From NCBI GenBank assembly GCA_002269645.1, contig NIVC01002668.1, positions 1 through 64,000 of the forward strand: 64,000 bases of DNA, in the 5' to 3' direction. This document shows positions 3 through 26,400 of the stretch, in pieces. This DNA comes from Macrostomum lignano. Its lineage: Eukaryota. The notes beneath the pieces were generated by a model, which saw only the letters and a program-made list of their open reading frames with translations, had not been told where the DNA came from and searched no databases. The position numbers were made by a program, and so were the translations under genes. Position 1 is the first letter of the stretch; every line of letters starts with the position of its first letter.

Positions 3-810
3 ATGAGAAGCATCATCATTTGTAGCGAAAATGCTGAAGGTACTCCTAGTGACTTTCATTTTCACCTGCCTTCATCTATTTACTTGGATCGAAATGTGGA
101 CTATGAGGCAGGTCTGGCTGAAATCCATCTGCCTGCTGCATGGTTCAATGTTGACGAGCCTTACTGCTTCACTGTCTCAGATGGAAGAGAGCATGAGGCC
201 CTGGTTCTTCAACCCGGACGCTTTGCTAGAGTGGAGGAACTGGTGGAACGCCTGAATGAGCTGCTGGCCAACTCTGAGTCACTGTTCTTCGATGCAATGA
301 GCGAAAGGGAGTCTGAAATGGAAGCTGATGAGTCCGGTTTAATGGGGCGAGCAGCGCTAGAGATATTGGCATAAAGTTTGAAATCCAAGAGTTGAGAACA
401 GTAGTGCTCAACAACACGGCTCGAGCAGAATTGTTCCTTCCATCAAGTAAAATTCTGCAGTGGCTGGGATTCGGAAACCAGCCTGTGAAGATCCCACCCG
501 GACGGCAAGTGTCACTCTGCTGCATCGGTTGTCCGCCCACCAACCTGATCAACTTGCACTGCAGCATTGTGGAGCGAACAAACTGTAACTGGAACTCCGT
601 GCTGCGAACTGTGAGCATGTCATCCGATGTCGAATGGGCAGCTACATGAGCAAAGTGTTTAAGAAAGCAATTTTCTTCCCGATTCAGAAAGCTAATTTTC
701 TATATGGCATTAGATTTCAACTGCGTGACATCTTTGGCTACTCACTGACTGCTCGGAGCAGCAGCCCTGTTCTGCTCACAGTTCATATTCGGGAAAGGCT
801 AATACAATGA
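3..810 (+). pseudogene. Polinton minor capsid (penton) protein, split by two frameshifts (about 370 and about 640)
   Basis: N-terminus SDFHFHLPSSIYLDRNVDYEAGLAEIHLPAAWFNV fits the F..LP..i.L...weVgL.Ei..P..w.Nv penton motif. The C-terminal piece in frame 646-810 reads VFKKAIFFPIQK...IRFQLRDIFG...VLLTVHIRE. Confidence 0.7.
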
Positions 811-1217: not shown

Positions 1218-2495
1218 ATGGCTTACGGATTCAACCCGAGACTCGATTTGTTCAAGTCCCCCATGCTGCAGACTGCCATTGAAAAATCCACATATGTTGA
1301 TATTCACCCCGTGAACTCTATTGTTACTAACTCACCTATTGAATTCGACTGTCATCCATCGGCTGATGAGTACACTGATCTGCTGAGCTCATTCCTGTAT
1401 ATTCGCTGTCGCCTAGTCCGGCTTGGCGGGGCTTTGATGAGGGAGGAGGTTCGAAATGCCGATGGAGTTGTCACTGAGCGCAGAGACAGTGGGGTGCACC
1501 CAGAAAACTTTGTCCTGTCTACGGCATTCTCAGATGTAATCGTGAGCATCAACCAGCGCATTGTATCAGGTGGAGACCAGCTCTACCCCTACCATGCCTA
1601 CCTAAAAGCTCTCATGGCTCATCCGATGCTCAGCAGTTAAAGTTCTACCCCGCCGGATTCCTGGAACCGAAACTGCTGCTGAGGGCATGCCGAGAGACAC
1701 AGGGAGTCCCGCTGGGTGGAGTATGCGGGACCGCTGCTCAGCGACATCTTCCAGTGTCCTGTTCTGCTGCTGAACAATTTACACCTGCACATCAAGCTGA
1801 TGCCCAGCGATACTGCATTCGCCATCGAACCCCAGATGAGAACAACACAGCCTACCGAATGGAAATCTCCCACTGCATTCTGAACCTGCGCCGAGTCAAA
1901 GTGGCGCCTCACATCAGCCTGGCGCATGAGCAGGGACTACCAATCAGAACGCACTTTACCCCATCGAGCGAACCGAAATGCAAAACTTTATTCTACCCAG
2001 GGAATTCAGTCAAAAAACATTGAAGGATTCACCCATGGCAAACTGCCGAAGTTCGTTATGCTGGTCTTCGTGAACCACCGAGCCTTCAATGGCCATCACC
2101 ATTCCAGCCCCTTCGAGTTCCAGAGCTTCAACCTCAGCCAGCTAGCACTAAAGAAAGGTGGTGAAGCCATGTGCCACGCTGCATTTGCACCTGAGAATAA
2201 TTCATTCGTGAGAGAGTACTTGCACTACCTGAAAAGCTGTCAGTCAGCCAGCCCTACCAACTCGGTTCCGTGGGTCCCCTACCAGTTGTTCTCCAACGGC
2301 AACACAGCTTTCGCATTCGATCTCACGCCTGAGGGAGCGGCCCTGTGGTACGGACAGAAGGAGGGCAATTTGCGGCTGGAGATTCGCTTCCGACAGGCCC
2401 TGGAGGAGCCTGTATCTCTGATTGTTATGTGCCTGTATGACTCACTGATTGAGGTCACCAAGCACAGGGAGATTCTGCTAGATTTTCCATCCTAG
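1218..2495 (+). pseudogene. Polinton double-jelly-roll major capsid protein, interrupted by at least 2-3 frameshifts or stops (about 1640-1980)
   Basis: LDLFKSPMLQTAI...PIEFDC...YTDL at the N-terminus. GPLLSDIFQ..LLLNN, ILNLRRVKVAPHISLAHEQGL, GKLPKFVMLVFV..AFNG....PFEF and GNLRLEIRF....LIVMCLYDSLIEV..HREI follow in successive frames. Confidence 0.9.
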
Positions 2496-2518: not shown

Positions 2519-3002
2519 ATGGATGCTTTTCAACTGCTTAAACTGGCTAAAAGCTTTTTGCCACAAAATAACTGTTTAATTATTGTCTTGAATTCAATAA
2601 ATAAAACATCTTATGCTTTAAACTTTATTCAGCGAGCAACTCTCAAAAGAAATTTATCTCGATGTAAGTTTATTTTCTTTCTGCTTCAGTACAGCTCATC
2701 CTTCGGTCACTGGGTGGTTTGTTATGCTGATAAGGAGAATTCCATAGAACTCTTTAACTCTCTGGGCTGGGACTCCAGCACTTTAGAGATCATTCACAGA
2801 GCACTGAAATCCTTTTGGTATTCTCCATTCTACTTACGTAGCAATGTGAATCGAATTCAGAGCTGACTCTGCTAAATGCGGTTTGTTCTGTCTCTTGTTT
2901 GCCTATCAAAAGTTTCGTTTCAAGCGCTCGTTTGAGTGGGTTCTGCGGCACCTCCATGCAAATCAGCAGAGCCACTTGAATGAAGAATCTGCAAAGGTTT
3001 GA
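2519..3002 (+). pseudogene. Adenain-like cysteine maturation protease, with a 1-nt frameshift just before the catalytic Cys
   Basis: GHWVVCY...IELFNSLG...NRIQS, then DSAKCGLFCLLF in the next frame (about 2862-3002). Confidence 0.8.
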
Positions 3003-3063
3003 GAGTTGCTTAAGAAAAAGAAATTTAATTAGATTTTAAAAATCAAGAATTTAGCTCAACAGG

Positions 3064-3717
3064 ATGGAAACACGTGAGCGGATAAACTGTTATGATGTGC
3101 GCCTGCGACAGGGAAGCTGCATGATTGTCAGCGGGCCTACAAATGCAGGAAAGACAACCTTCGTGAAACATCTGATACAATACAAGGATGTCATGTTTGA
3201 TGTGAAGCCTGGGAGAGTTCTGTGGTACTACGGGATTTCACAAGCAGCACACTCTGAGCTCAGCAGTCTCGGCGTGCACCTGCAGCAGGGATTTCCCAGC
3301 AGTATCGAGACCGCACTGAGACCCAATGACCTGGTTGTATTTGATGACCTGATTGAAGAAACTTCCAATTCTGCTGCAATGCGAAATGTTTTCACTGGAA
3401 TTGCCCATCATTTGCCCTGCTTTCTGGTTATGCTCACCCAAAATGTATTTTTTAAAGGGAAGGAGTTGCGAACAATGAGTCTGAATGCGATGTACTTTGT
3501 GATCATGAAGAACCCCAGAGACCAGCTGCAGATTGCAGCGCTGGGCAGGCAGTGCTTTGCTGAGAAGCCCGGATTTCTGCTGTCAGTGTTCAAGCACGTG
3601 ACATCGCACGGCAGGGGAGCCTACCTGCTCCTGGATTTTCACCCTTCCACCCCTGATGAGCTGCGGGTCCGGGCTCGAATCCTGCCCAATCAGCGACCCC
3701 ACCTGGTTTACACTTAA
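3064..3717 (+). CDS. FtsK/A32-like genome-packaging ATPase
   Basis: Intact 217-aa ORF with Walker A GPTNAGKT, Walker B LVVFDD, and the HH...LTQN and ISLNA-like (MSLNAMYFV..KNPRD) motifs of Polinton ATPases. Confidence 0.93.
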   Translation: METRERINCYDVRLRQGSCMIVSGPTNAGKTTFVKHLIQYKDVMFDVKPGRVLWYYGISQAAHSELSSLGVHLQQGFPSSIETALRPNDLVVFDDLIEETSNSAAMRNVFTGIAHHLPCFLVMLTQNVFFKGKELRTMSLNAMYFVIMKNPRDQLQIAALGRQCFAEKPGFLLSVFKHVTSHGRGAYLLLDFHPSTPDELRVRARILPNQRPHLVYT

Positions 3718-3795
3718 GAATAACAGCCGAGATTTGCCATTTGTTCTATATTCTGCAACACTAATGATAATGGAAACTTTGACTCACATGAAAGT

Positions 3796-4080
3796 TTGTT
3801 TGATGTTCTCGCGTCACCGAAATATTCCATCAGCTTTAAACGTCTGTTGATCAGAGCGGGTCCAAAAGCCGTACGTGAATTTCTCATTGAGGCCTGCTAC
3901 AACCTATTGCAAAACACTCTGTCGTTCTCACTCACTCAAAAGGCAGCGCTGGTGAAGCAAAAGCAAATAATCCGCAAAATTTCTACACATAGAAGAGCTG
4001 CGGATCTGCTAAATACGGGTTTTATCAAAATTCTCTACATTCTAATAAAGCTAGTGAAGAAAAAGAAGCAAAATGAATAA
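3796..4080 (+). CDS. Small basic conserved Polinton protein of unknown function
   Basis: LIEACYNLLQNTLSFSLTQKAALVKQKQIIRKI resembles the E...N.L.G...l...qk..L.k.k..lR motif common in Polinton ORFs. The true start may be slightly upstream. Confidence 0.55.
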   Translation: MFDVLASPKYSISFKRLLIRAGPKAVREFLIEACYNLLQNTLSFSLTQKAALVKQKQIIRKISTHRRAADLLNTGFIKILYILIKLVKKKKQNE

Positions 4081-4752
4081 GTTCTCAGAAATGGTTCTGA
4101 TCCCCAAGTCAGAGTACGACATGCTCACACAGAATTTGAAGCCAGTCGAGTCTGAAATGGACACTGCTGTGAGATATGCGCAGAGGAAATGCAATGATAT
4201 TTTGCTTGCCGAGGATTGCCCAGACGATGTGAAAGCTGCCATGTACCATGATGCGATGAAGAGTTTGCTGGCCAAGCGCAAGCGGACTGGAAAGGATGGT
4301 GCGGTACCTGCGAGTGATGCAAAGATGCTGAAAACAGATATTGCACCAAGCAGCTGGGGGGAAAAGATCACCCAATCCGTGCCGCAGAAGTTTAAAGCGA
4401 GAGCCCGCAGTCTATGGGCCATCCTATCTGGCAATCCTTCTCTGATTCGGTGTCCGAAAATGGCGAGGCGCAAATTTCTGGGAAGACAATACCCTCCTCA
4501 AACATCCTGGATTTGTTTCACAGTGCGGTGAGGGATTCGAAATGTGCCAGCGAGCCGGTAGGCTGGAGTGAGTTTGTCTCATTGCTTCAAGACAAAAAGC
4601 TTAACATCCCAGCTTCGGCTATAGGAAAGTCAGTAAGGCAGCTAATTTCTAAACCGGCTGTTTCTCCAGAGGCCACCCCTGCACATCATACAGTTAAGGG
4701 ATTCGGGAGTGGGAGAGCCTGGCTACACCTGAGCAGGAAAAAAACTATTTAA
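4073..4752 (+). pseudogene. Conserved Polinton hypothetical protein, one frameshift (about 4420-4530)
   Basis: MVLIPKSEY N-terminus, and SSNILDLF...EPVGWSEFVSLL....IPASAIG in the second frame. Confidence 0.55.
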
Positions 4753-4805
4753 GAAGGGGAACTGAGTCGGCTTCCCGACATCATGCGTCTTGAAACCATC
4801 CGATC

Positions 4806-5651
4806 ATGAACTATATTGACTTCCAAGGCTTCCCACGCGAGAGATCGAGCAGAGATTTCGTTGTGAAGGAGCTGGCCATTGCCCAAGTCCGGGCTGGCAG
4901 TTACCATATCACTCATCACGTGTACGCCTCTCCGTTCTCATGGGACAGAATCTCACCTGAGATGCAAGTACATTACAGAAAGCTCTCAAAGAATTTGCAT
5001 CATTTCAAGTGGACAGATGGATCCCGACCGTACATGCATTTGGCTAATGACATTCTAAACATTGCTTACGGTCCCACCTGGACAAGCGGGGTGAAAAAGT
5101 CCATCTTTCTGACTGAGCTGCTTGGCAGACAGGTGTACAACCTAGAGGATCTGGGATCACCTTTGATTCAAGCATCTGATACTGGTTGTGCAGTGAAAAA
5201 TGTATTACTGTACTACAACTGGCTGAAACCGAAGTTCTGTATCAACTTAAGAAGCGAGGTGTGCCCGCACCACTCAAAAGCTCGCAAAGACAGCACCACT
5301 GACAGAAAGGACTCTCTAAATGAGTACACCTGCGACAGCCCTGCGAGTGACCAATCTGGTCGGCGGCGTGGATCTGAGACTTGCTGGAGACAGGGGTGCC
5401 CAGTTGCCTCTGCGGGAACTGGCTCTCAGCATGGCTCATGTCATCTATCGCCCCGTCTGGCCCCGAGTGCTTATCAAGAGGATGCGGAGTCCCAGAGTGA
5501 CTCTATTGCTCTATCCGACTGGACAACTGAGTATCTGTGGCGCCCGGAGCTACTCGGCCTCAGTCAGGGCCGCTCGTCGCTTCGTGGCTATGCTGCATCG
5601 CAGAGTGCCTGCTCAACTGCTGCCTCATCAAACTGTGCATGTGCGGATTAA
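4806..5651 (+). CDS. Polinton accessory protein, possible DEDD/RNase H-like exonuclease fold in the first ~145 aa
   Basis: N-terminal YIDFQGF...FVVKELAI motif and HHFKWTDG...KG-like segments. The C-terminal half is low complexity and overlaps the TBP ORF out of frame. Confidence 0.5.
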   Translation: MNYIDFQGFPRERSSRDFVVKELAIAQVRAGSYHITHHVYASPFSWDRISPEMQVHYRKLSKNLHHFKWTDGSRPYMHLANDILNIAYGPTWTSGVKKSIFLTELLGRQVYNLEDLGSPLIQASDTGCAVKNVLLYYNWLKPKFCINLRSEVCPHHSKARKDSTTDRKDSLNEYTCDSPASDQSGRRRGSETCWRQGCPVASAGTGSQHGSCHLSPRLAPSAYQEDAESQSDSIALSDWTTEYLWRPELLGLSQGRSSLRGYAASQSACSTAASSNCACAD

Positions 5652-5883
5652 AACTATTACTGCGCATGGGAAAATTGACTTGTGCAGAGCACTTCCCCTC
5701 GCTAATCTTGTGAACACTTTACCAAATGCTCAATATGAGCCAGAATCATTTTCTGCTTTAATCTGCAAACTAAGCTTCTGCAAATGCCTGCTTTTTCACA
5801 ATGGCTCATTTGTTCTCAGTGGTGCAAAAACAATGAGCATGCTAATTTCCGACTTTTCCTTGCTTGTCCGTTTTCTGTGCTAA
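5320..5883 (+). CDS. TATA-box-binding protein (TBP) homolog encoded by the Polinton
   Basis: 187-aa intronless ORF with two TBP repeats: VTNLVGGVDL...LPLRELALSMAHVIYRP...MRSPRVTLLLYPTGQLSICGARS...AARRF and IKTITA...LPLANL...NAQYEPESFSALICKL...CLLFHNGSFVLSGAKT. The ATG directly follows an in-frame TAA. Confidence 0.88.
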   Translation: MSTPATALRVTNLVGGVDLRLAGDRGAQLPLRELALSMAHVIYRPVWPRVLIKRMRSPRVTLLLYPTGQLSICGARSYSASVRAARRFVAMLHRRVPAQLLPHQTVHVRIKTITAHGKIDLCRALPLANLVNTLPNAQYEPESFSALICKLSFCKCLLFHNGSFVLSGAKTMSMLISDFSLLVRFLC

Positions 5884-6599
5884 TAATAACCATATGTTTC
5901 AACAATTAAATAAAAAGACGACAGCTGAACAAAAATATAATAATCTTGCATGCATATACCACGTATTAAGATGCGTGCATTTTAATCAATATACCTGAAA
6001 ATCAGACTTCGATCGACTTTTTCTTTATTTTCATAACTGAAATCGCAATATTAGTTTGAGTATAGAAAATTTAATCAGACCACAACCAACTCAAGAAAAA
6101 AAGCACACCCATCACTCAGATTATGCACTGCTAAGACAAATAAAAACGAACAAGAACTAGCAGAAATGAAAAAGGAAGCCAATATTTTTCAGATAATCAT
6201 TGGATAATGGTTACAAAAAATATGAGTAGCAAAGCTAGCAAAGATAAAAAGGACAGTAACTCAGTTCATTCAATTGTGCAAAAATTCAAGGATAGTAAAA
6301 AAGAGGAAAGCCAGACCAATATGACGCAAATTATTCCAACATGGCTTTCACAAGTTCGCATTGAAATAAATCTGGAACAACTCAACCCGAAAATGTTACG
6401 TTCAGTTAGTTGCTTAGAGACTACAAATATGTAACTAACTGAATTGGCTCTATTCGTTCCAGCATTGTCATTATCATCATCATCCATCATTATCACCATC
6501 ATCATCATTCAGATTAATTAAACCACTGAAACAATTCATGGAGTACATAAGTAAAAGTCAATAAATTTCAACGCCAAGGTTACACAGATGTGCAAAGCA

Positions 6600-9500
6600 T
6601 CACTCTAAGCAGTCCGCTGTCCTTTTCGGACTACCCCTGATTAACAGCTGAAAGTGGCCGAACGGAAGACTTGAATTCGAGCCAGTCCACGCTCGCTTGT
6701 CCTCCCAGATACTGAGAGCGAGCTTACGTTGCTCAATGGTGAAAACGCGATGTTTCTCACTTCCAATTCGACGAACAGTGAGCGACAGCTTTGAAGCCCC
6801 CTTGAAAATCTTGACGTAGTCGTCGTGGGAGACTTCATTCTTCATCACGCTTCGTTGGATGCCTTTTGCTTTTGCTTTGCATGCCGCCGAGCTTTCAGCG
6901 AGGAAAGAATAGAGCTTGGGCCTTAGCAGCACCCACTCAATCTGTTGCAGTCCACCAGCTTCATCTTTAATGCAGCCTAGCTTGGCCTTTAGCCGATTCG
7001 AGAAGAGAGGATGATTAGTGAGAAAATTGGAGGTGTCCAAGAGGCCTTCGGCATGCAGGATTGGCAGCACTTCTCTCTGCAAACTAAGGTTCTCTAAGCT
7101 CAAAAACAACGAGTCTGTATCGCCACCGCAAACTCGAACTCTTGCTCCATCACGGAATTCTAGCATGGGTTTTATTTTGTCATAGTAAAGTCGATACATG
7201 ATGATCTTGGAGCGATCTAGAACACACTGCCCCATGAAAATTGGCCGATCAAGAGTTACTTCGCGCTTTTGAAGCTCAAAGATGCTGAGTGACGGCGTAA
7301 TGATTGTGAATGATGCGACATTTGGTTGAGAAGAAACAGTCTTGGCTTTTTTCTTGTCACTGCACACTCTGATGTCCCGCCGCTTGCGCACGTTCTCCAT
7401 TGTTTTGCCAAACAGGGAGTTATTTTTCAGTTTATAGAAATCCTTCTCGAAATCATTTTTCGCCATAGAGCGCTTCTCGCTATTCATCTTAATGTAGTCC
7501 GCGAAGACAGGTTCTTGCCTGAATTCGATCATCCTGTGGAGCCCATGCAACTTCATTCCGTGCGATAGATAGAATCGGAGAGCAGACGAGTGCAGTACAT
7601 AGGAAAACTTGTTGTGGCATGTGAGCATTAATTTTTGTACTCCACGGTAGCGCGCAACGGTAGGATTCTCAGTCGTGTTCGCGTCGGGCTGCTGCTGCTG
7701 ATGATGCTGAGAATGATCATTGTCATGTTGAAGCAGTACCCATAATTCTCGCATGTACTGCGGAAATTCTTCAAAATTCGGACACCTTTTCTCTGGGGCG
7801 AATGGAAGATCCTCCGTTGCCGTGTGGATTTCGGCTGGGTAGAGCAAATCCGCTTCGACAAGGTAGCCGATTGGAGCGTCATCATCCAGGGAAAGAAAGC
7901 GGCACTCGGACCATGAGCAGAGCTCCTCTTGACTGAGCCAGCGAAAGCCACCAACAGGTAGGGGCATTGTGAGCGCATGACCGTAAAGATTATTAGCATC
8001 AACAGCCAGTAAACTCCTACCTGCTGGTTCATTATCATCATCGCTACTTTCGCTCTGGACATGATGTACATTGACAAAAGACATTCCACCCCGAATTCCT
8101 TTTTCAAACATTTTATACATCTCGAGGTCAGTTAGCAGTTCGATCTTGACTTGAGAAGACTTTAGTGCAGAAGCGAATGATAGGCCTGGAGTTGACACAA
8201 AATGCACCGGATCTAGCTTGTCTTCCTGCAAACTCAGCCTTCGAAACCCCTCAAAGATATCTGCTAGTTGCCTGATGTCCAGCTCCAAGTAGCAGAGCAT
8301 GTAATCGCGCAATGTTGTAGATTCGAATTCAGTCCAGGCCTTCTGCGCATGCCGATACTCCGCCTCGGTACAGTGGCCGTTGGTGAGTCGGTTAAAAAAG
8401 CTTTCTACTTTTGGTAGTTGGCGATCATCAAGCACATTCAAATTCGAGAGATAATCATAAGGGAAAACTCCCTTACTAAACAGTACATCGCTTGAAAGAT
8501 TTGGATACTTTGATCGCATCGCATTAGTGATGGGACAGTTGTCCTCCGGCAAGTTCTTAATAAGTTGAGAGAGACTGCTGTGTAGGAATTGCAGTGAGTC
8601 GATGAATTGTAGCGTGAAAAACAGGGGCTTTTTTACGCCATCTTTCTCATACTCATCAATCTGGAACTCGACCCTCATGGAGAGGTACGACTCGGCAGTT
8701 TGGGGGATGACGCTCACCCTCCAACCAGTCATGTCACCCAGCGCAGTTGAGAAAATCAAATGCAGGTCATATCCGCGAAGATTGTGGAAAACTATTGGCA
8801 AAAATCGCCGTTTTAGCCGAGCAAGCTTGTTACACGAAGCGCAGGCAGCACCCTTGTATTCACCGCTGAGGTGGTCGTGATCCCAGTGCTTGTCAGAAGA
8901 TGAAATAAACACTGCATTGCATAAATAGCACTGTGGGGCATCTTGAAAGCTGCGCCTGTTGTCATCTCTGTTTCTGTCAGCAATCTGATGACTAAACTCG
9001 GTATTCCAACCATAAACTTCACGAGCAAGACGTTCGAGTGAGGCCAAAAACTGTTTCACGACAGAATTCGGATTGGGTCCGCTGCAGAGGAAAACATCCT
9101 CACTCGGCCTCAGAATTTTGCTGCTCATACCCTCTCTTGGAATAACAATGTAGCCAGCAGCTACAGGTACATGCTCAGTTAACTTGGTGACAGTAACTTC
9201 TCTTTCAGACTCCACTGGTTCACGTGGGGTGTTCAGAGCTTCAAAATCTGCGTAGACAACAAATGGGGGACTGATTGTCTTTTCCCAAGCCATGAACTGC
9301 ATTGTGTTGCTACTTGCATCAGGCATGCGCTCCATAATGGCTGGTTTCAGTTGAGGATTGCAGCTGTCTCGATGCTGCTCCAACTCTTCCTGGGATCGAA
9401 ACGGAGAAATGCACTTCTCACACCATTTGCGATTCCTCAGACCTTTTTTGCTGTTCAGGAGCCGGTCCAGGTTCGAAACTGCACACCAGTGTCCAGTCCC

Positions 9501-10358
9501 ACAATTCTCATCACCACCACCATCATCATCAGCATCATCGGTGCTGGAGTTGCGAAGCAAGAGTAGAGGAATAACCTTGCGAGAGGCACAAATCCCAGGA
9601 AGAGGCTGGCGAATGACATAGGCCTCATCATCTTCCCAGCTAAAAACTGTGAAACAGATTTCGGAATTATTTTCCTCTATAACGTCTAAATCGGAAATTG
9701 CGACTGGTAGTGCGATGCCGCTCAGATCGATTTCATCCAACCATCTGCTGTAAGTTGTTAGTCGATGGCAAGACTTCATCACACCAGGATCTCTGATGTG
9801 CAGGTAAGCGAGACAGGCAAACAGAAAGCAATTGTTTCCATCGCTCGGTGGGTTGATTATGGCCTTCTTAACCGCCAGCTGATTGGGCAAAGAAAAATTC
9901 GCGCATCGTCCACGATAGTAGCGAATGCGATCAGTGAGGGCAGAGCACAGATCAAAATAGTTGATTTGCTCAACTATCCAACCGCTCCCATTTGAATTGT
10001 AGGCATCAATCTTGCGTTCCAGCTCAGAAAACTGCTGCAACCACCACAATTCAAAATCTCTTAGATCAGAGAGAAGCTCAAGACCGCATGCGATCCACTT
10101 ATCTTCTGCATTGATTACCGCAGCTTCCTTGATTCTCACCATTCTGATGTTGAACTTGAGCTGCGCTCGAATAGATTTATTCTCGGATGAATCGAATCTC
10201 ATCTCAACAGCCTGTAGCACTGCAAACTTCGTTGATGATAAAAAATGAAATGGCTCGAGATCTCTTGATGCTGGAGTGAAGCGTCTGACCTGCAGCGTGT
10301 CATCATGCGCACTAGCGTGAATAGCCGAGCTGAATTGAATGCCTGCATGAATTAGCAT
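6600..10358 (-). CDS. Protein-primed family B DNA polymerase with terminal-protein/OTU-like N-terminus, C2H2-like finger and endonuclease VII-like insert
   Basis: Intact 1252 aa. Motifs: GSGW; LP..L..KKAIINP..NNCF; GHWCAV; CEKC...H...C; ExoI YADFE; WDHDHLSGEYKGAAC..CN; FHNLRGYD; Pol A DANNLYG; Pol B KLKNNSLFGKT; Pol C GDTDSL. Confidence 0.97.
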   Translation of the reverse strand: MLIHAGIQFSSAIHASAHDDTLQVRRFTPASRDLEPFHFLSSTKFAVLQAVEMRFDSSENKSIRAQLKFNIRMVRIKEAAVINAEDKWIACGLELLSDLRDFELWWLQQFSELERKIDAYNSNGSGWIVEQINYFDLCSALTDRIRYYRGRCANFSLPNQLAVKKAIINPPSDGNNCFLFACLAYLHIRDPGVMKSCHRLTTYSRWLDEIDLSGIALPVAISDLDVIEENNSEICFTVFSWEDDEAYVIRQPLPGICASRKVIPLLLLRNSSTDDADDDGGGDENCGTGHWCAVSNLDRLLNSKKGLRNRKWCEKCISPFRSQEELEQHRDSCNPQLKPAIMERMPDASSNTMQFMAWEKTISPPFVVYADFEALNTPREPVESEREVTVTKLTEHVPVAAGYIVIPREGMSSKILRPSEDVFLCSGPNPNSVVKQFLASLERLAREVYGWNTEFSHQIADRNRDDNRRSFQDAPQCYLCNAVFISSSDKHWDHDHLSGEYKGAACASCNKLARLKRRFLPIVFHNLRGYDLHLIFSTALGDMTGWRVSVIPQTAESYLSMRVEFQIDEYEKDGVKKPLFFTLQFIDSLQFLHSSLSQLIKNLPEDNCPITNAMRSKYPNLSSDVLFSKGVFPYDYLSNLNVLDDRQLPKVESFFNRLTNGHCTEAEYRHAQKAWTEFESTTLRDYMLCYLELDIRQLADIFEGFRRLSLQEDKLDPVHFVSTPGLSFASALKSSQVKIELLTDLEMYKMFEKGIRGGMSFVNVHHVQSESSDDDNEPAGRSLLAVDANNLYGHALTMPLPVGGFRWLSQEELCSWSECRFLSLDDDAPIGYLVEADLLYPAEIHTATEDLPFAPEKRCPNFEEFPQYMRELWVLLQHDNDHSQHHQQQQPDANTTENPTVARYRGVQKLMLTCHNKFSYVLHSSALRFYLSHGMKLHGLHRMIEFRQEPVFADYIKMNSEKRSMAKNDFEKDFYKLKNNSLFGKTMENVRKRRDIRVCSDKKKAKTVSSQPNVASFTIITPSLSIFELQKREVTLDRPIFMGQCVLDRSKIIMYRLYYDKIKPMLEFRDGARVRVCGGDTDSLFLSLENLSLQREVLPILHAEGLLDTSNFLTNHPLFSNRLKAKLGCIKDEAGGLQQIEWVLLRPKLYSFLAESSAACKAKAKGIQRSVMKNEVSHDDYVKIFKGASKLSLTVRRIGSEKHRVFTIEQRKLALSIWEDKRAWTGSNSSLPFGHFQLLIRGSPKRTADCLE

Positions 10359-10440
10359 GTTGTTGGGTGTACGCGTTTCACTCGACAGTTAAAATTTATA
10401 AATCATAATCCTAATTCCACCTCATTATGGTGCGGGAATC

Positions 10441-10750
10441 GGTTAATCAGGAATCAGTGAATCGGGAATCGGCGAATCGGGAATCGGTGAATCGGGAATC
10501 GGCGAATCGGGAATCGGTGAATCGCTAATCAGTGAATCAGGAATCGGGAATCAGTGAATCGGTGAATCGGTGAATCGGGAATCAGTGAATCGGTGAATCG
10601 GGAATCAGTGAATCGGTGAATCGGTGAATCGGGAATCAGTGAATCGGTGAATCGGGAATCAGTGAATCGGTGAATCGGTGAATCGGTGAATCGGGAATCG
10701 GTGAATCCGTGAATCGGGAATCGGTGAATCGGCGAATCAGGAATCGGGTT
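10441..10750. repeat. Tandem array of GAATCGGT/GAATCGGG/GAATCAGT units (roughly 35-40 copies) upstream of the PolB start
   Basis: Directly visible 6-8 bp periodicity, e.g. gaatcggtgaatcgggaatcagtgaatcggt. Confidence 0.95.
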
Positions 10751-11529: not shown

Positions 11530-12891
11530 TTAGAATTGAGAATTGCTCAGGCGAATACGGAAAGCCCCTCCCAAGTCAATCCAATATTCACCCGTAACAC
11601 TGTTGGGCAGAACCAGCTGGATGCAGAGAGGTGCTGGCTGCTGCACTTCATTAGCGGCCGCAGGCTGAACCTCAGTCGGTGGTGGCGGTGGTGGAGGCGC
11701 AGGGCCTGAGTCCATATCGCGAATCAGGTCGGACAGGCTGACTTCGACCGCAGGCTGAACCTCAGTCGGTGGCGGCGGTGGTGGAGGCGCAGGGCCTGAG
11801 TCCATATCGCGAATCAGGTCGGACAGGCTGACTTCGACCGCAGGCTGAACCTCAGTCGGTGGTGGCGGTGGTGGAGGCGCAGGGCCTGAGTCCATATCGC
11901 GAATCAGGTCGGACAGGCTGACTTCGACCGCAGGCTGAACCTCAGTCGGTGGCGGCGGTGGTGGAGGCGCAGGGCCCGAGTCAATATCGCGAATCAGGTC
12001 GGACAGGCTGACTTCGACCGCAGGCTGAACCTCAGTCGGTGGTGGCGGTGGTGGAGGCGCAGGGCCTGAGTCCATATCGCGAATCAGGTCGGACAGGCTG
12101 ACTTCGACCGCAGGCTGAACCTCAGTCGGTGGTGGCGGTGGTGGAGGCGCAGGGCCTGAGTCCATATCGCGAATCAGGTCGGACAGGCTGACTTCGACCG
12201 CAGGCTGAACCTCAGTCGGTGGCGGCGGTGGTGGAGGCGCAGGGCCCGAGTCCATATCGCGAATCACGTCGGACAGGCTGACTTCTGCCAGCATCCTGGC
12301 ACGCTCCATATTTTTTCCGGGAACAGGGATTGCACGCCGCTGCTGCTGCTGTTGCATTTCTTGCTGCTCCTGTGCTTCAGGCTCACCATCGGGGTTCTCG
12401 AAGAAAGCGGTGTCCAGCTCATTCAGCTCGAAGTCAGGGGTGCCACCTCCATCAGCAGCATCAAGCAGGGGAGCTCCGACATCATCATCAAGTAGAGCAG
12501 CAGAAGCAGCAGCAGGCTGGGCGTTGGGCTGGTCACCAGTGTTCGTTACTCGGCCGCATAAGCTCGTGATAACTTGACTCAAAGTGCTCACCGGGTCTCG
12601 AATGCGTTCTGCCGCCCTGTTGCGTTCCTCTTGACGTGCAACTTCCAGAGCAGTAATGCGTGCCTGCTCGCGGTCTTCAGCAGAGCTCCAATTAACAGTC
12701 GAATGATTTTTATGCCTTTTGATTTGGCCTCTAACGGTGAAGAGCTCAACGGACTGGCATTCATGGCATAGTAGCCATCGGGTGACACTGCAGCCTTCAT
12801 TCGCTACATGGTGCTTTAGTCCACCGAGCATACTAATATTGCAGGTGACACACACCTCATGAACGTAGGATGGGCACCGAGAATGGCTCAT
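11530..12891 (-). CDS. Polinton ORF with Cys/His-rich N-terminus, acidic and polyQ segments, and seven 30-aa polyproline repeats
   Basis: Intact 453-aa ORF. CxxC...HH and CxxC...HxxH at the N-terminus; repeat unit SLSDLIRDMDSGPAPPPPPPPTEVQPAVEV. Confidence 0.7.
   Translation of the reverse strand: MSHSRCPSYVHEVCVTCNISMLGGLKHHVANEGCSVTRWLLCHECQSVELFTVRGQIKRHKNHSTVNWSSAEDREQARITALEVARQEERNRAAERIRDPVSTLSQVITSLCGRVTNTGDQPNAQPAAASAALLDDDVGAPLLDAADGGGTPDFELNELDTAFFENPDGEPEAQEQQEMQQQQQRRAIPVPGKNMERARMLAEVSLSDVIRDMDSGPAPPPPPPPTEVQPAVEVSLSDLIRDMDSGPAPPPPPPPTEVQPAVEVSLSDLIRDMDSGPAPPPPPPPTEVQPAVEVSLSDLIRDIDSGPAPPPPPPPTEVQPAVEVSLSDLIRDMDSGPAPPPPPPPTEVQPAVEVSLSDLIRDMDSGPAPPPPPPPTEVQPAVEVSLSDLIRDMDSGPAPPPPPPPTEVQPAAANEVQQPAPLCIQLVLPNSVTGEYWIDLGGAFRIRLSNSQF
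11661..12285 (-). repeat. Coding tandem repeat, 7 x 90 bp
   Basis: aggg(c)c(t/c)gag recurs at 11701, 11791, 11881, 11971, 12061, 12151 and 12241 (exact 90-bp period). Confidence 0.97.
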
Positions 12892-13477: not shown

Positions 13478-14002
13478 TCCTCGCGGCAGAGTCCACCAAT
13501 CCATTTACATAGAGCTCTATTCGGCTTTTTTCATTGAAGATCGAGTAGTAGGAAAATGAAAAGCGTCAAATTTTTCTTTTTTTGTCTAATTAGCTTAATT
13601 ACTTCTCAAAGGATAAAAACATTTTCATTTAAAATCTAGAAACTAGTATTCTTTTGAAATGTTTGAAATGTTATTTCAAATTCGTCCTTTCGTTTCTATA
13701 GAAATACGATAAAAGATCGAGAAAATTTCTCGAACCGAATTCCAGAATCGGATCGCGGTTTTGGAACCGACTATGAAAACGGAACAGACAATATGAAAAG
13801 CTTCGAACCGATTCTGGTCCTGGAATCGGTCATATGAAAAGCCCGTATATTTCGCTCTCCGACCCCCCCCCCATGGAAATTCCGTGGCTTTCCCTGCGGC
13901 AGAGTCCACCAATGCATTTACATAGGCGCTATGTTTACACACATAGGCCCGTGGTTTTCCCACGGAAATTCCTGCGGCAGAGTCCACATTTCCCCTACTA
14001 CT
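13478..14002. repeat. Polinton terminal region with subterminal direct repeats (GCGGCAGAGTCCAC x3) and CTACTACT end
   Basis: GCGGCAGAGTCCAC at about 13483, 13896 and 13974. Terminus at 13995-14002, followed by AGTGAT (candidate 6-bp TSD; the left copy is not visible). Confidence 0.75.
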
Positions 14003-14205: not shown

Positions 14206-15582
14206 GCCTCACCGGCATGGACTTCCAGTTCACCAAGCACTCGTCTGACGGGCCACCGCGCTACAAGATTCTCAACTTCCAGCGCTTGAGCGGCGACTCC
14301 TACCAGTGGGAGGACATCGGCCTGTACAACGGCTCCTCTCTGATGTTGTGGCATAACCGGCTCCGCTTTCGCGACGGCGCTACGCAACCGCCTGTGTCGG
14401 CCTGCCAGCCTGAGTGTCCCGCCGACGCAAAACGGCAGATCAACCCTGGCGAGTGCCGCTGCTGGGTTTGCGTCGCCTGTCCCGAGTACGCCATTGTCAG
14501 TGGCGACCGGGAGCAGTGCGTCGAGTGTCAGAAAGGCCAGCGTCCGTCTGCGGACCGAAACCGCTGCGAGGACATCGCTCTGGAGTACCTCACCTACGGG
14601 CACCCCATAGCCGTGGTGGCGCTGATTTTTGCGTCGCTTGGCGTGTTGGTCACGTGCTTTGCTATTGCCGTATTCATTCGCAATCGGGATACCGCTGTTG
14701 TGAAGGCTTCCGGCAAGGAGTTGTCCTTCCTGCTGCTTCTAGGAATTCTCTTTTGCTACCTCATGACCTTCGTCCTGTGCGCCAGGCCCAACGACTGGCT
14801 CTGCGGCACGCAGCAGTTTGGCGTTGGATTCGCCTTCTCAATCTGCTATTCGGCTTTGCTAATCAAGACTAACCGAATTGAACGGATTTTCCGCGCCGGC
14901 AGACGAACAATAAAACGACCAAAGTTCATCTCGCCACTGTCGCAAGTGGTCATGTTCTGCCTGGTCACATCCGTGCAGATTGTTGTGCTGGCCGTTTGGA
15001 TGCGAATCGAGGCCCCCAAGGCGGTGCGGCACTACCCGTCCAGGGACAAGCATCAGCTCGTGTGCGCGTCTCTTGTTGGCTCGCTTTACCTGGTGGGCCT
15101 GGTGCATCCGATGCTACTCATAGTAGTCTGCACATTCTACGCTTGCCTGACCAGAAACATTCCGGAGGCATTCAACGAGAGCAAGCATATCGGGTTCACC
15201 ATGTACAGCACCTGCGTCATCTGGCTCGGATTTGTGCCCTGCTACTTCTCAACTGCGGCCTTCATCCACATTCGCATCGCAACCTTGAGCTTCTCGATTT
15301 CCCTCTCGGCGACCGTGTCTCTGGCCTGCCTGTTCGGCCCAAAGCTCTACATAATTCTATTCCGTCCGGAAAGGAACGTCCGTCAGTCGATGATGGCGAG
15401 CACTCGGAGGCAGCATTCGACCAGAGATGGGAGCGTTCTTCACCACGTCAACAACAATAACAACAGCAACAGCAACTGCGGCGGAGACCAGTCGCAGCAC
15501 GTCCTGCTGGCATCCTCCATGGCCTCCGGCAGGGGCAACAACCACCAGCAATCGAGAACCGACATCAGCACGCAGGCTGATG
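14206..15582 (+). CDS. Metabotropic glutamate receptor (class C GPCR), internal exon: end of Venus flytrap, cysteine-rich domain, 7TM
   Basis: Acceptor ccgcag|G at 14206. Motifs RYKILNFQ, PVSACQPEC...CWVC..C, VVKASGKELS, LLIKTNRI.RIF, KFISP.SQ, TRNIPEAFNESKHIGFTMYSTCVIWLGF.P, GPKLYIILFRPERN. Donor G|gtaag at 15582. Confidence 0.95.
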
Positions 15583-16028
15583 GTAAGCCATTCCTCTGTC
15601 TGAAAAAATGTTTAAAGCAAAACCTTTATTGATATATATCGAATCGTATAAGGGTGGTAAAATTAAGCAACGATATCGACCTAAAATTAAAGCTCAAACG
15701 ACCCAATCGACTGCAATTGATAACTTGTCGTACATGTCGACTCGAAGCGCTGAGGAAATTGGGAGGTCCAATGGTGCTTAACAGCAGGTATTTCAGGTTA
15801 CATTACCGAGATAGTAAGCTGATATTCTCATTTTCAAGTACGAGCTATTATTAAGACAAGAAGCTCCTCCAATTAATTTTATTGACTCGGGAACAGTTTA
15901 ATTTTACGTCCTAATCGAGTACCAATCATTTTCGGATGTTCAGTGATGATCGATTCCACTCAAAATCGAACAAAAATTAATAAAAATTGATTAATTTATT
16001 TTCAAAATCCTTCTGAATCCGACTTCAG

Positions 16029-18904: not shown

Positions 18905-21264
18905 TCAAATCTGCAGCATGAGCCGAACTCCACGAAGAGACAGCGGGACAGAGCCAGTGTGCCAGATCATATTACTGTAATCTGCGGTCTCTCCCGAAAG
19001 AAAAATTCCGTTGGGGTTGGTGAAATGGCAGTTTTTAAACCACCAGCCTCCTTTTCCCCATATGTTTGAGCATGACTCAGTGCTGTCGTCATTGTCCCTG
19101 TCCTTCGTGGAGAACCGCATGCCTTTGCTGTGCTCCAAAGCGTCAAAGCTGACATTGGACCTGTCCCTCAGCATCTCTCGGTACGTCATCCGATACCCAG
19201 TGCTGGCGTCTCCCACCTGGAATCCCGCGTACTCCGCATGCAGCTCAGAGCCGTTCCACAGCTTCATCTCCACTCTGAGGGTGGCGCCGCCATGGTTAAG
19301 CGAGTGGATGGCGGAGAGACCTGAGGGAGGAGAGTGGCTGAGTCTGAGTCGATGAAAATCATGGGAGTAGCCTCCAGGTTCTCTGAAGCCACCAATGCAG
19401 CAGGAAAGGCCAATGTAGAGCATTACCATCAAGATGCAAGTAGTTAATCGAAACATTTTAATCGGCTGAGCAGCCAATCATTCAATTCAACTTGCATCAT
19501 TCGAAGCGCATGAGTCACAGAAATTTGTTATAAATCCACAAGATGTGCTTCTACTGCTGACACGCAATATTAGCTGATACAAAAAGGCCACTCACCGATC
19601 CAGAAGTCAGTGCCCTCACCGAAGCCAGTCTCGTACTCAGTCCAGTTTCGTTGGAAACTCACTATGCCAGTAAGTCGCTGCTGAATCTTCAGGAAGCAGC
19701 GACCGTCTGGCTGCAGTTGAAACGCACTGGAAGAGTTCGTTGTGCGGTGAGCAGAGGCGCATTGCAGTCTGGCCCAGGACTTCAGACTGGAGCAGCTCTC
19801 TGCATCTTCAGACGGTTTCATTCTCCATGATGAAGTTATTCGGCTGGGTTCGAAAACGCACTGCTCAGCAACCAGCGATGTCACCCGCCACTGGACGTGT
19901 CGCCACAGGTCAGTGGGCTCCGTCAGCAAAGCAGACCTGGAAGTCAGTGTCAGTGAACTTGCTTGCAGCACTGTTTGGACTAACACGCTTGTGCGAACGG
20001 ATATTATAGATCCAGACCTGATCGTTATCTAATTTGTTTTCTGAAAACCAAAACACTACAAAACAAAATCGAAATAAACTCTACGCTCGCACTTAATCTC
20101 GTCTGGAATCAGGTATCAATAGCTCACAAAAATGTCAGCCAACCTGAGACCGCGGCACTCCCTTCAGTTTCTGCAGTACAGCCACAGCTGAGCGGACCTC
20201 CAGTCTGCCGACGCCATCAGCGGACCGACCTCGAACCGAGCACTCAACGAAGAGCTCACCGATCTCTCAGCAGTCCACAGCCGCATGAAATCGACCGAGC
20301 CAGGCGACAAGTCGGCCAACTGAGTCCTCACAGCATCGCGTGTGGCCTCATCTTGCAGCACCAGATCCAGTTTCAGGTAGTGCATGTCTCGGCTGTAGTC
20401 ATACCTGACTGACTCGCTGCTCAAGCTGGAGATGTTGTGGCACAGCAGAGGCTCGATGAGGAAGTGGCCCTTCATGTCGAGTCTCTGGTGCACTCGGGCA
20501 GAGCAGTTCTCGAGATTGATGGAGCGGATGAATTTCAGCTGTCCGCATGTCACCAGAGGTGAGAATTTTTGCCGGTTCAAGTCCAGATCGAAAATGCTGT
20601 CGTTTTGCAGCATGACGCGGCTCTGAATGTCATGGCAGGAGGCGTTCGCAATAATCGAAGCAATTAATTTCACTTTTTCAAGAGCCTGCCGAGGTGAATG
20701 TTTGAAACGGTCTTGCACTTTAAACCACTGGATTTGTTTATTCAAAAATATTATTTTCGACTGTCTCTGTTTTTGTACAAGCAAAGGCCAGCTATTTTTC
20801 TCCAGCGCCAGTCTGAGAGTGGCTACTGGCTCATTCGGAGTCCACAGGAAGCCCAACACTCGAATCGATGAGCGGGTGTCGGCCGAGACGCTGATGTTAG
20901 TCACGTTGGCGAAGCTTACAGAACTCGGTGACAGATGCTGCATTTGACGCTGAGCCTCTGCGAGCATCCCAGCATCCTTCATCAACACGGGAACATTGAC
21001 ATACTTTTGCTGAGCAATGGAGTCGAATCGAGCAGCAATGCCTCTCAGGCTGTCCGTCACGCACATGAGCGGCTCGACTGCCAAGTGCGGACCGTCGCTC
21101 GCTCCCGTGTCGTGCACGAACAGCGCGCAGCCGTTCACGCTGAGCTGCGCCACGAAGCGGAGCCGCAGAGAGTCAGCGGGAGCGCACTGGGAGACCTGGC
21201 CGGCTGCCAGCGAGCAGAGCAGCAGAGCCAACGCTGCAGAAACTCGCAACTCATAGAGCGGCAT
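18905..21264 (-). CDS. Secreted fibrinogen-related protein, copy 1; exons 21264-20144, 19936-19596, 19320-18905; in-frame TGA at 20164-20166
   Basis: Signal peptide (RVSAALALLLCSLAAGQ) and phase-consistent GT-AG junctions. FReD motifs IQQR..G.VSFQRNWTEYETGFG..DFWIG|LSAIHSL, LRVEM, YAGFQVG, GMRFSTKDRDND, GGWWFKNCHFTNPNG. Confidence 0.8.
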
Positions 21265-23441: not shown

Positions 23442-26400
23442 TCAAATCTGCAGCATCAGCCGTACTTCACGAAGAGACAGCGAGACGGAGCCAGAATGCC
23501 AGGTCATATACCTGCATTCTATTTTCTCTCGTGAAGGAAAAACCGCGTTAGGGTTGACGTGATGGCAGTCTTTAAACCACCAGCCTCCTCTACCGCATTC
23601 GTTTGAGCATGAATAACGCGATACGTCATTGTCCCTGTCCATCGTGGAAAACCGCATGTCCTTGTGGTGCTCCAAAAAAGCGTCAAAGCTGACACTGGAC
23701 CTGTGCCTCAGCATCTCTCGGTACGTCATCCGATACCCAGTGCTGGCGTCTCCCACCTGGAACCCCGCGTACTCCGCATGCAGCTCAGAGCCGTTCCACA
23801 GCTTCATCTCCACTCTGAGGGTGGCGCCGCCCTGGCTGAGCGAGTGGATGGCGGAGAGACCTGCGGGAGGAGAGCGGCTGAGTCTGAGTCACTTCTGCTC
23901 GGCTTGTCGCCGCTGCAGTCAGGTGAGTCGCGATTCGGATGTTCATGAAATTTTAAAAATATATCTCTATTAATTTTGAGCTTGTGTTGTGCTAAAAATC
24001 TGGATTAATGCGTGAATGAACTCCGCTGATGCATCCAGCTCCCTTTAAGGCTGGTAATGTTCCAGCTGGACGTGGACGGCCTTTCTGCTTTTCTCCACTC
24101 AGACTGTGATATCTTTCTTCAAGATGAGCTTTCAAATTGAGCGGAGTATCATTCAGCTAAAATACATAAAAATGCGAGATATGAGATACCGCGTTCTGAT
24201 AGACAAAATAATACTACATGTACTTCCACATCTACGAGTTCGCGTCGATTGCATCATATTTTTGCCTTGTGCACACTGTAACTCGAGGGCGCAGTTGCGT
24301 AATCGCGCACGCTTTGACGCCTTTTGCCACGGAACGCGCATTCGCATATGCGCGCTGTTCATAACTCCTGCCTGTTCCCTGCACTCCTTTCCTCTGTGCT
24401 CTCGTTTGCAGCCACTTGACAGCTTGGCCGTGGCTGCTCTTTGTTCGCTACGGTCCAGAGGTCACTGGTGATTTCACTAGTGGCCCGCTTTTCCGTATCT
24501 TATGGCGAATGGCGGAAGCTGGAAGACGTCAGGCTTCTGAAGAAGTGGCGCACGGTGTCCAGGCGCCTGGTTTCTATCTTGAGATGGCACTCATTTAACA
24601 TAAAATTAGTCACCTAGTCACCTAAAAGCACAAGATCTGCTTTCACTCCTGTCATACAAAAAGACTGCTCACCGATCCAGAAGTCAGTGCCCTCACCGAA
24701 GCCAGTCTCGTACTCAGTCCAGCTTCGTTGGAAACTCACTATGCCAGTAAGTCGCTGCTGAATCTTCAGGAAGCAGCGACCGTCTGGCTGCAGTTGAAAC
24801 GCACTGGAAGAGTCCTGTGCGTTGAGCAGAGGCGCATTGCAGCCTTGCCCACGACTTCAGACTGGAGTAGCTCTGCATCTTCAGACGGTTTCATTCTCCA
24901 TGATGAAGTGATTTTGCTGGACTTGGAGAGGCACTGCTAAGCAACCAGCGATGTCACCCGCCACTGGACGTGTCGCCACAGGTCAGTGGGCTCCGTCAGC
25001 ACAGCAGACCTAGAAGTCATCAATTGCTTTTTTGAAGGACAGTGCTACGGGGGAATACAAACCGAATTAGTAGAAAACTGAAAAAATTCAACATCAAAAG
25101 CAAATAATTCGAATGCATCCTAGGCTCACTATGAAATTACTAGCCTTAGGTAGAAAACAGTAGGGGGTAATGATGCTGCTGAAATCTATGCATTTATTTT
25201 TTATATTGAAGAACTATGGCATGTATGATGCTTTGCTTTTTTTCAGGTCAGGAATCTTAGTTTTATTCTTGCTAAGACTCTTGATGAAGCTGTTCAGCAA
25301 AGAGCATATAACTACCAGGTAGCAAAACTTAACTTAGAAAGTCCTGGATATGAAATTGTAAACCTGCTAAGGCAAAATGTCAGCCAACCTGAGATCGCGG
25401 CACTCCGTCAAGTTTCCGCAGTACAGCCGCAGCTGAGCGGACCTCCAGTCTGCCGACGCCATCAGCGGACCGACCTCGAACCGAGCACTCAACGAAGAGC
25501 TCACCGATCTCTCAGCAGTCCACAGCCGCATGAAATCGACCGAGCCAGGCGACAAGTCGGCCAACTGAGTCCTCACAGCATCGCGTGTGGCCTCATCTTG
25601 CAGCACCAGATCCAGTTTCAGGTAGTGCATGTCTCGGCTGTAGTCATACCTGACTGACTCGCTGCTCAAGCTGGAGACGTTGTGGCACAGCAGAGGCTCG
25701 ATGAGGAAGTAGCCCTTCATGTTGAGTCTCTGGTGCACTCGGAGAGCAGTTCTCGAGATTGATGGAGCGGATGAATTTCAGCTGTCCGCATGTCGCCAGA
25801 GGTGAGAATTTTTGCCGGTTCAAGTCCAGATCGAAAATGCTGTCGTTTTGCAGCATGACGCGGCTCTGAATGTCATGGCAAGAGCCGTTCGCAATAATCG
25901 AAGCAGATAATTTCACTTTTTCAAGAGCCTCCTGAGGTGAATGTTTGAAACGGTCTTGCATTTTAAACCATTGGATTTGTTTATTCAAAAATAGTACTTT
26001 CGACTGTCTCTGTTTTCGTACAAGCAAAGGCCAGCTATTTTTCTCTAGCGCCAGTCTTAGAGTGGCTACTGGCTCATTCGGAGTCCACAGGAAGCCCAAC
26101 ACTCGAACCGATGAGCGCGTGTCGGCTGACACGCTGATGTTGGTTACGTTAGCGAAGCTCACAGAACTCGGTGACAGATGCTGCAGTTGACGCTGAGCCT
26201 CTGCGAGCATCCCAGCATCCTTCATCAACACGGGAACATTAACATACTTTTGCTGAGCGATTGAGTCAAATCGAGCAGCAATGCCTCTCAGGCTGTCCAT
26301 CACGCACATGAGTGGCTCGACTGCCAAGTGCGGACCGTCGCTCGCTCCCGTGTCGTGCACGAACAGCGCGCAGCCGTTCACGCTGAGCTGCGCCACGAAG

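Follow-up and report, generated by a model that had tools for sequence, protein, structure and literature searches.

A minimal TATA-binding protein gene in Mavericks of the flatworm Macrostomum lignano, and its proposed role at lineage-specific TATA variants

Introduction

The late TBP mimics of herpesviruses (KSHV ORF24, EBV BcRF1 and HCMV UL87) use a TATT box, and ORF24 binds RNA polymerase II (Pol II) itself within a six-protein complex (PMC6541308, in part). TBPs of large dsDNA viruses have the two-lobe TBP fold with a diverged regulatory surface. The glutamates of the C-terminal lobe, which form the TFIIB contact, show about 40% conservation in viral TBPs, and these viruses mostly bring a TFIIB of their own; in human TBP, E284/E286 mutants lose transcription, F116 is required for DNA binding, and roles of F116 and F305 have been described (all PMC7221094, in part). 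In addition, a poxviral TBP/TFIIB-like factor has been described (PMC12917281, in part), and sporadic TBPs are found among the mirusvirus-derived elements of an alga (PMC10675990, in part). A Polinton-related element also bears a TBP label, in Fig. 5 of a study of MELD viruses with adintovirus-like PolB, in its section on non-animal datasets (PMC8502044, in part, and its preprint). Neither a TBP analysis nor a promoter motif is given in the text consulted, where TBP is also missing from the genes named for animal adintoviruses, and one of its supplements contains no TBP, TATA or Macrostomum. The label lowers the novelty of a TBP outside the canonical Polinton gene set, which had been part of the original prediction for the locus described here.

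Mavericks, or Polintons (adintoviruses), have no RNA polymerase, and no transcription programme is described for them in the literature that we searched. That literature, mostly non-subscription, also yielded no paper that counts TBP among the regular genes of animal Mavericks or reports on their promoter boxes. The element studied here shares with Mavericks/Polintons the PolB, the rve integrase with chromodomain, the adenain protease, the ATPase, the AGTAGT termini and the 6-bp target duplication. To our knowledge, neither a TBP nor a PC4-like gene, an overprinted ORF or two promoter classes are among Maverick/Polinton core features.

The locus resembles the herpesvirus system in having a viral TBP-like protein and no viral RNA polymerase, with host Pol II as the presumed enzyme, and in the modified TATA box before predicted late structural genes. 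Unlike ORF24, however, the Maverick protein is a bare 187-aa core without a herpesvirus-type Pol II-binding extension. It is recognisable as TBP by sequence and keeps the TFIIB stirrup, and we claim no homology to ORF24. Its matches in BFVD are TBP-like proteins of large dsDNA viruses. Most of those viruses bring a TFIIB of their own and no longer have the stirrup glutamates; in the Maverick protein these glutamates do not vary, no TFIIB turned up in the elements, and their genomes of 14-17 kb are far smaller.

Our main reading, to which we assign a probability of roughly 60%, is that the element TBP is a late-promoter factor whose mode of action resembles that of herpesvirus ORF24/BcRF1. Its target would be the lineage's own TATA variant, YTTAAGAA, which precedes the integrase, packaging and putative capsid genes; the intact stirrup would then attract host TFIIB and Pol II to these late genes. 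Host TBP would already have read the TATATAAG boxes that stand before terminal genes, namely the PC4-like coactivator gene and, in some copies, the Cys-rich ORF. The outcome would be an early-to-late switch without a viral polymerase. From the fold, the conservation, the residue pattern, the box positions and the group-specific box sequences we infer DNA binding, TFIIB recruitment, starts about 30 nt downstream of the boxes, and the timing. For elements that lack an RNA polymerase, a minimal TBP with a matching box is a concrete proposal for how capsid genes are switched on.

An intact TBP gene within a Maverick

The window is the whole stretch of DNA that we analysed, 64,000 nt of M. lignano contig NIVC01002668.1 (assembly GCA_002269645.1). 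The contig starts within the element, and the integrase, the PC4-like gene and the left terminal inverted repeat (TIR) are thus absent from the window; several of the genes that are present are interrupted in this copy. The features are as follows.

3..374, + strand: putative minor capsid gene, first piece (ORF, gene order)
658..665, + strand: TTTAAGAA box, with the ATG of the putative core protein 149 nt further on, at 807
1218..2495, + strand: putative major capsid gene, in pieces here (Polinton gene order; no Pfam match)
2519..2866, + strand: adenain-like protease, shorter than in sister copies (Peptidase_C5 above cut-off in a sister copy)
3009..3016, + strand: CTTAAGAA box, 55 nt before the ATPase ATG
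3064..3717, + strand: packaging-type P-loop ATPase (motif and position; Pfam matches below cut-off)
3713..3720, + strand: CTTAAGAA box overlapping the ATPase stop; a small ORF conserved in sister copies follows 58 nt downstream
4073..4752, + strand: conserved 230-240-aa ORF, two pieces in this copy (ORF, sister loci)
4748..4755, + strand: TTTAAGAA box, 58 nt before the 281-aa ORF
4806..5651, + strand: 281-aa ORF, a domain of about 160 aa plus a tail overprinting TBP repeat 1 (-1 frame)
5246..5253, + strand: CTTAAGAA box, 74 nt before the TBP ATG, within the upstream ORF
5320..5883, + strand: two-repeat minimal TBP, 187 aa (ORF, Pfam, PDB matches, AlphaFold2, Foldseek)
5620..5665, no strand: identity-switch zone, TBP codons ~101-115, boundary of virion arm and PolB arm
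5909..5914, + strand: AATAAA 3′ of the TBP stop, candidate poly(A) signal (inferred)
6600..10358, - strand: family-B DNA polymerase (DNA_pol_B_2, Endonuclease_7; Pfam), convergent with TBP
11530..12891, - strand: Cys/His-rich ORF whose 30-aa repeats are acidic and proline-rich; candidate early regulator
13995..14002, no strand: right terminus CTACTACT of the element, host DNA beyond

The element is a Maverick, as originally predicted. Its PolB matches PF03175 (E=1.5e-18), a sister copy that is 99% identical to the window (C3901) has an rve integrase (E=2.4e-16), and AGTAGT/ACTACT termini with 6-bp target duplications are found in all four copies checked (one of group A, to which the window belongs, and three of group B). 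In sister copies Pfam confirms PC4, rve and Peptidase_C5, the chromodomain staying below cut-off. Gene order was read from ten long loci on other contigs. Over the part that each of nine group-A loci covers, it runs from the PC4-like gene through integrase, putative minor capsid, core, putative major capsid, protease, ATPase, two small ORFs and the 281-aa ORF to TBP, followed by PolB on the opposite strand; the order in the single group-B locus is related. TBP holds the same position in all ten long group-A/B loci. Pfam gives no match for the putative capsid genes, which we take to encode major and minor capsid proteins from Polinton gene order, size and position.

The TBP reading frame, with its ATG at 5320 and a stop ending at 5883, requires no intron. 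It matches PF00352 in two stretches (E=4.5e-22, 78.1 bits against a cut-off of 22.9), and all 35 of its matches among PDB sequences at E<=1 are TBPs or TBP-containing fusions. The AlphaFold2 model, from a 57-row alignment, has a mean pLDDT of 94.8 and a pTM of 0.85, and in a Foldseek search with it TBP chains make up the PDB rows at E<=0.001, the TM reaching 0.84 and the rmsd being about 2 Å. The protein is thus predicted to have the TBP saddle fold; profile and model both bear out the intact, intronless two-repeat core that had been proposed, and the frame had been described correctly. What had been missed is that its first 110 codons overlap the ORF at 4806-5651. Two M. lignano database proteins are 78% and 99% identical to the window TBP. 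Most of the element, including the 5′ half of TBP, is covered by contigs of four sequencing runs, whose RNA origin is a guess and which reveal neither starts nor strand nor level; they list no GT..AG joint in 4806-5883, and we set them aside as evidence.

Several minor features were noted along the element and beside it. In group-A elements the PC4/Sub1-like coactivator gene (L051:2633-3394) is the leftmost feature noted and follows TATATAAG; group B has a similar gene at the right end, on the other strand. The Cys/His-rich ORF contains about seven 30-aa repeats, the type of which varies between PolB arms, and in a sister copy it has a weak FAM76 match below cut-off. An array of 7-8-nt GAATCGG-type repeats lies just upstream of PolB within the element (10433-10750). 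In the host DNA, the exon at 14217-15632, 215 nt past the element end, is by the look of its sequence presumably a class C GPCR of the metabotropic glutamate receptor type, and the ORFs at 18905-21264 and 23442-23807 presumably represent at least two copies of a fibrinogen-domain-like gene.

Residues that contact DNA and TFIIB

Host TBP aligns to yeast numbering without gaps, and yeast numbers are used here for substitutions. TBP's N-terminal lobe contacts the 3′ half of the box, four intercalating Phe residues and two central Asn residues have roles in TATA binding, and V203, L205 and P191 affect specificity. The element TBP is 27% identical to host TBP and lacks the N-terminal extension of cellular TBPs. 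It shares with them the fold and the equivalents of N69, E186/E188, F190 and F207, and also keeps L114 and R105. Of the canonical set of intercalating Phe and central Asn only F190, F207 and N69 are kept: repeat 1 is altered at F99 (P48 in the element) and F116 (Y65), and the second central Asn, N159, is replaced (T112). Further changes are Q158 to K, P191 to S or N (S in the comparison with cellular TBP) and V203 to K. All of the motifs quoted in the original prediction were recovered in comparison with host TBP: YRPVWP for YNPKRF, LLYPTG for LIFSSG and IKT for IQN, together with YEPESF and LLFHNG. That prediction saw altered DNA specificity in these changes; the loss of F99 and N159 could instead mean weaker binding and no new specificity.

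The TFIIB side of the protein shows a different pattern of conservation. The stirrup glutamates (E140 and E142), P141 and the repeat-2 residues F144 and F159 are invariant in all 18 group-A/B rows, which answers the question, raised with the original prediction, of whether TFIIB contacts are conserved. The basic helix H2 is mostly kept in group A and is not basic in group B. A search of the whole genome for the TFIIB family gave 15 matches on seven contigs, none of them a contig that yielded a fetched element, and the one such locus examined is an intron-containing host gene. For the element TBP with a 172-aa exon of host TFIIB, complex prediction gave no informative result either way (score 0.01).

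These residues also bear on a second reading, which the original prediction had raised as a dominant-negative decoy. Host TBP/TFIID would read the boxes, and the element TBP would work away from DNA, where, as decoy or sink, it would tie up host TFIIB, NC2, Mot1 or TAF1 and so dampen host genes or protect promoters of the element. Altered DNA contacts in repeat 1 combined with a retained stirrup and, in group A, a retained helix H2 are what such a decoy might look like. However, the repeat-2 Phe residues and N12 are kept, and helix H2 is not basic in group B.

The suggested resemblance to TRF-type paralogs finds no support. The host TRF2-like protein changes different residues, losing the equivalents of F99, F116 and F190 and keeping N159, and in two quick trees it does not group with the element TBP. 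Its gene (L027; contigs C350, C3090 and C3513 of assembly G000) has a 397-aa open frame in which three of the four intercalating Phe are replaced.

Copies, selection and phylogeny

Of the 150 TBP matches listed from a genome search (out of 152), 94 are near full length, covering at least residues 8-176, and free of stops, with 71-100% identity; such match counts are not copy numbers, since the assembly seems to contain redundancy, with three occurrences of host TBP. Group-B TBPs, at 36-38% identity, gave 17 full-length stop-free matches. Between group-A lineages, dN is 0.07-0.17 against a dS of 0.43-0.76 in repeat 1 (the first 110 codons), and 0.23-0.46 against a dS above 1.1 or saturated in repeat 2 (the remaining codons). 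By these values the element TBP is under purifying selection.

In quick trees the group-A and group-B TBPs form one clade (SH-aLRT 98-99) that also includes Logan, ENA and JGI proteins and lies far from both host TBP and the host TRF2-like protein. A quick tree neither establishes nor rejects a single origin for all Maverick TBPs (p-AU 0.495). Scans of viral contigs for the context of the element TBP found nothing. A metagenome scan gave ten loci, of which the six examined are archaeal or protist cellular TBPs.

A gene that is intronless, in a window copy where several other genes are interrupted, could also have arisen as a processed copy of host TBP that was captured recently or is decaying, of no use to the element. 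We find this hardly credible, given the low identity to host TBP and the long separate branch, the purifying selection, the fixed position in the ten long loci and the presence of relatives in outside collections; the possibility, allowed for in the original prediction, of a recent host copy confined to one insertion is refuted by the copy data, the selection and the branch. TBP is, on this comparison of sequences, a regular, selected gene of this Maverick lineage.

A TATA-like box upstream of group-A genes

TTAAGAA is the most frequent 7-mer upstream of group-A genes: of 55 windows at -100 to -25, 26 contain it. The associated P values are overly small, since the motif was selected on the same upstream regions on which it was tested. 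The coding strands of five group-A elements contain 7, 7, 8, 7 and 7 copies of YTTAAGAA and their opposite strands 1, 1, 0, 0 and 1; the host background is 6 per 50 kb, counting both strands. Four to six of these boxes per element lie 35-90 nt before the ATG of the integrase, minor capsid, ATPase, small ORF, 281-aa ORF or TBP gene, and further boxes lie 110-149 nt before the core and major capsid genes. The boxes of the window start at 658, 3009, 3713, 4748 and 5246. In all 54 fetched group-A rows, (C/A)TTAAGAA is found 65-80 nt upstream of TBP. Group-A boxes are retained where the flanking sequence has diverged, and within coding frames they appear as the rare codon pair TTA-AGA, which accounts for 11 of 96 Leu-Arg pairs where 1.7% would be expected. 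Across the window as a whole, CTTAAGAA shows no enrichment, with 5 occurrences where 2.95 are expected, and the protease and the 240-aa ORF have no box within 100 nt.

The terminal genes differ: TATATAAG or TATAAAAG lies upstream of the PC4-like gene in five of six copies and of the Cys-rich ORF in three of five, the window's own not among them. Group-A TBP, and in the window's subgroup also the upstream ORF, lies behind the variant box itself, so the first TBP molecules would need another route, a point against a strict switch.

Groups B, C and D have their own boxes

Groups C and D surfaced through searches with the ATPase and capsid genes. Of the three groups besides A, B and C have a confirmed TBP and D has a candidate. 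No TBP-less Maverick group was found in this genome by the ATPase and capsid searches, and the link between TBP and box is therefore without a negative control. Each group has its own 8-mer on the coding strand before the integrase, packaging and putative capsid genes, and the terminal genes tend to retain TATATAAG. The 8-mers are near-exclusive to their own group among the 15 elements compared, all of them, like the overprinted frame described below, from this one genome.

In group B, YATAAGAR occurs six times per late cluster at matching positions in all five elements, and the canonical TATAAAAG stands before TBP. The group-C box, TATAAGYA, occurs 3-6 times per element on the coding strand and once in reverse over ten loci. 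The group-C TBP, confirmed by Pfam and by hhalign (97.6%), has no relative in the protein database. It adjoins PolB in seven of the ten fetched loci; one of the remaining loci hits a contig end and two show no TBP in the stretch read. Group C also has a dUTPase and, in some copies, a P-loop kinase-like frame after TBP or fused to it. In group D, TATAAATA occurs 6-7 times, never in reverse, and TATATAAG stands before the first genes. The very diverged TBP-like candidate, present in all seven group-D loci, is found by its own profile (E of 9e-9 to 7e-5; hhalign 34%) and has no Pfam match. Group-D elements (L157-L170; contigs C261, C416, C1395, C384, C522, C49 and C296 of assembly G000) are TIR-bounded, about 10 kb long and end in ACTAC..GTAGT. 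Integrase, putative capsid, protease and ATPase genes are present and no PolB was seen; group D is possibly non-autonomous for replication.

How far these boxes depart from an ordinary TATA box matters for the decoy reading. TATAWAWR is the normal TATA consensus, and departures of one or two bases are tolerated in yeast (PMC4457894, in part). The group-D box fits this consensus and the B and C boxes are one or two bases off, so that host TBP could read them; three of the four boxes are thus as a decoy with a host reader would have them. The group-A CTTAAGAA, however, is three mismatches off, and a near-exclusive box for each group is not explained by a common host reader. A decoy accounts less well for the boxes, and together with the residue pattern this makes it, in our judgement, unlikely.

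Groups A, B and C share a TAAG core, and just 11-12 nt separate two group-B boxes from the first ATG downstream, a distance too short for a -30 box. In baculoviruses the late TAAG motif is an initiator-like element where transcription starts, and the Maverick box might similarly be a start site, read non-canonically by the element TBP or by another element protein, for instance that of the PC4-like or Cys-rich ORF. Nearly all remaining boxes, however, lie at least 35 nt upstream, as would be expected of a -30 element, the late box of group D has no TAAG, and the element has no RNA polymerase. We regard a start-site role as very unlikely. The promoter-selectivity factor of the original prediction, which is close to the late-promoter factor proposed here, gains indirect support from the group-specific TATA variants before late-type genes and from the invariant TFIIB glutamates.

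A frame overprinted on repeat 1, and exchange between arms

The ORF at 4806-5651 covers the first 110 TBP codons in the -1 frame. Of 75 rows (69 distinct loci) from groups A and B, 73 keep this frame open over 104 codons or more, the two exceptions being copies with other damage; six further loci with no readable TBP start were left out of the count. Under synonymous resampling, the chance of a stop-free -1 frame is 0.004-0.02 per sequence tested. Within the overlap there are 22 group-A columns where a silent T would create a stop, and T is found there in none of 35 distinct sequences, whereas after the overlap such a silent T occurs in 25 of 30 columns, a contrast that is inflated since the second half is more diverged. 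The overlap may exist for a functional tail, or as a route to a fused product.

The second possibility leads to a further reading, in which the working product is a larger fusion or complex, with the TBP domain tied to the upstream ORF by frameshifting or splicing. The overlap would then exist for the fusion, and the role could be replication, packaging or escape from silencing, over promoter choice. Besides the open frame across repeat 1 in groups A and B, it is notable for this reading that coupling of TBP to the upstream gene recurs. The group-C TBP frames (L129, L132, L134, L137, L143, L145 and L147) have no start ATG and begin after pyrimidine-rich AG sites, which suggests splicing to an upstream exon, and the group-D candidate also has no ATG at its start and overlaps the upstream gene. 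On the other hand, in groups A and B the TBP comes with an ATG and a box of its own, the overlapping frame stops at different places in A and B, and in the window's subgroup an in-frame stop immediately precedes the TBP ATG. A fusion thus seems distinctly unlikely to us. A database protein in which the upstream ORF is joined to TBP (P0011) was rejected as a fusion because it matches single copies with a shifted frame.

The upstream ORF has no Pfam or PHROG match. Relatives of its domain in the atlas are 137-181 aa long and without the overprinting tail; a weak atlas lead (0.88) points to PF13017 (DEDD/Maelstrom-like), and the model of the domain, from eight sequences, has a pLDDT of 40.

The overlap ends close to a second boundary. 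Copies that are 91-97% identical over the arm from integrase to TBP share only patches of 64-72% identity in PolB, and in all eight pairs identity falls at TBP codons ~101-115, from near-identity to about 60-80%. As the drop is at the junction of the repeats, repeat 1 would travel with the arm that carries the boxes and repeat 2 with the polymerase, although this boundary may simply be the last stretch of shared homology. Dual coding was set aside as the explanation of the low dS of repeat 1, which is mostly due to arm exchange; a roughly twofold drop relative to neighbouring genes remains.

Discussion

What appears to be new here, as far as sequences can tell, is the presence of four TBP/box combinations in one genome, a frame overprinted on a TBP repeat, and a hinge between two exchanging arms. 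If the late-promoter reading is true, the herpesvirus late-gene strategy would have a second, apparently independent case. The system is a laboratory flatworm with many recent copies, and its four combinations form a natural series for rewiring TBP specificity, which is hard to do with an essential host protein.

More tentatively, animal Mavericks in general may run a private transcription code, each lineage pairing a TBP of its own with a separate TATA variant for virion and integrase genes, the TBP gene being a genome hinge here. This broader view, which we think somewhat doubtful as a whole, includes the suggestion that the gene has been overlooked since it is diverged, spliced or overprinted. 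For the hinge, repeat 1 would be locked to the box arm by the overprinted frame, and repeat 2 exchanged with the polymerase arm. Were this broader view right, it would supply natural orthogonal TBP-promoter pairs and a way to learn when Mavericks form particles.

Database proteins P0009, P0019, P0040, P0127, P0130, P0149, P0154 and P0075 are also short diverged TBPs without an N-terminal extension, and atlas clusters of TBPs of about 190-200 aa include nematode and chordate records. All of these are candidates for further mobile-element TBPs.
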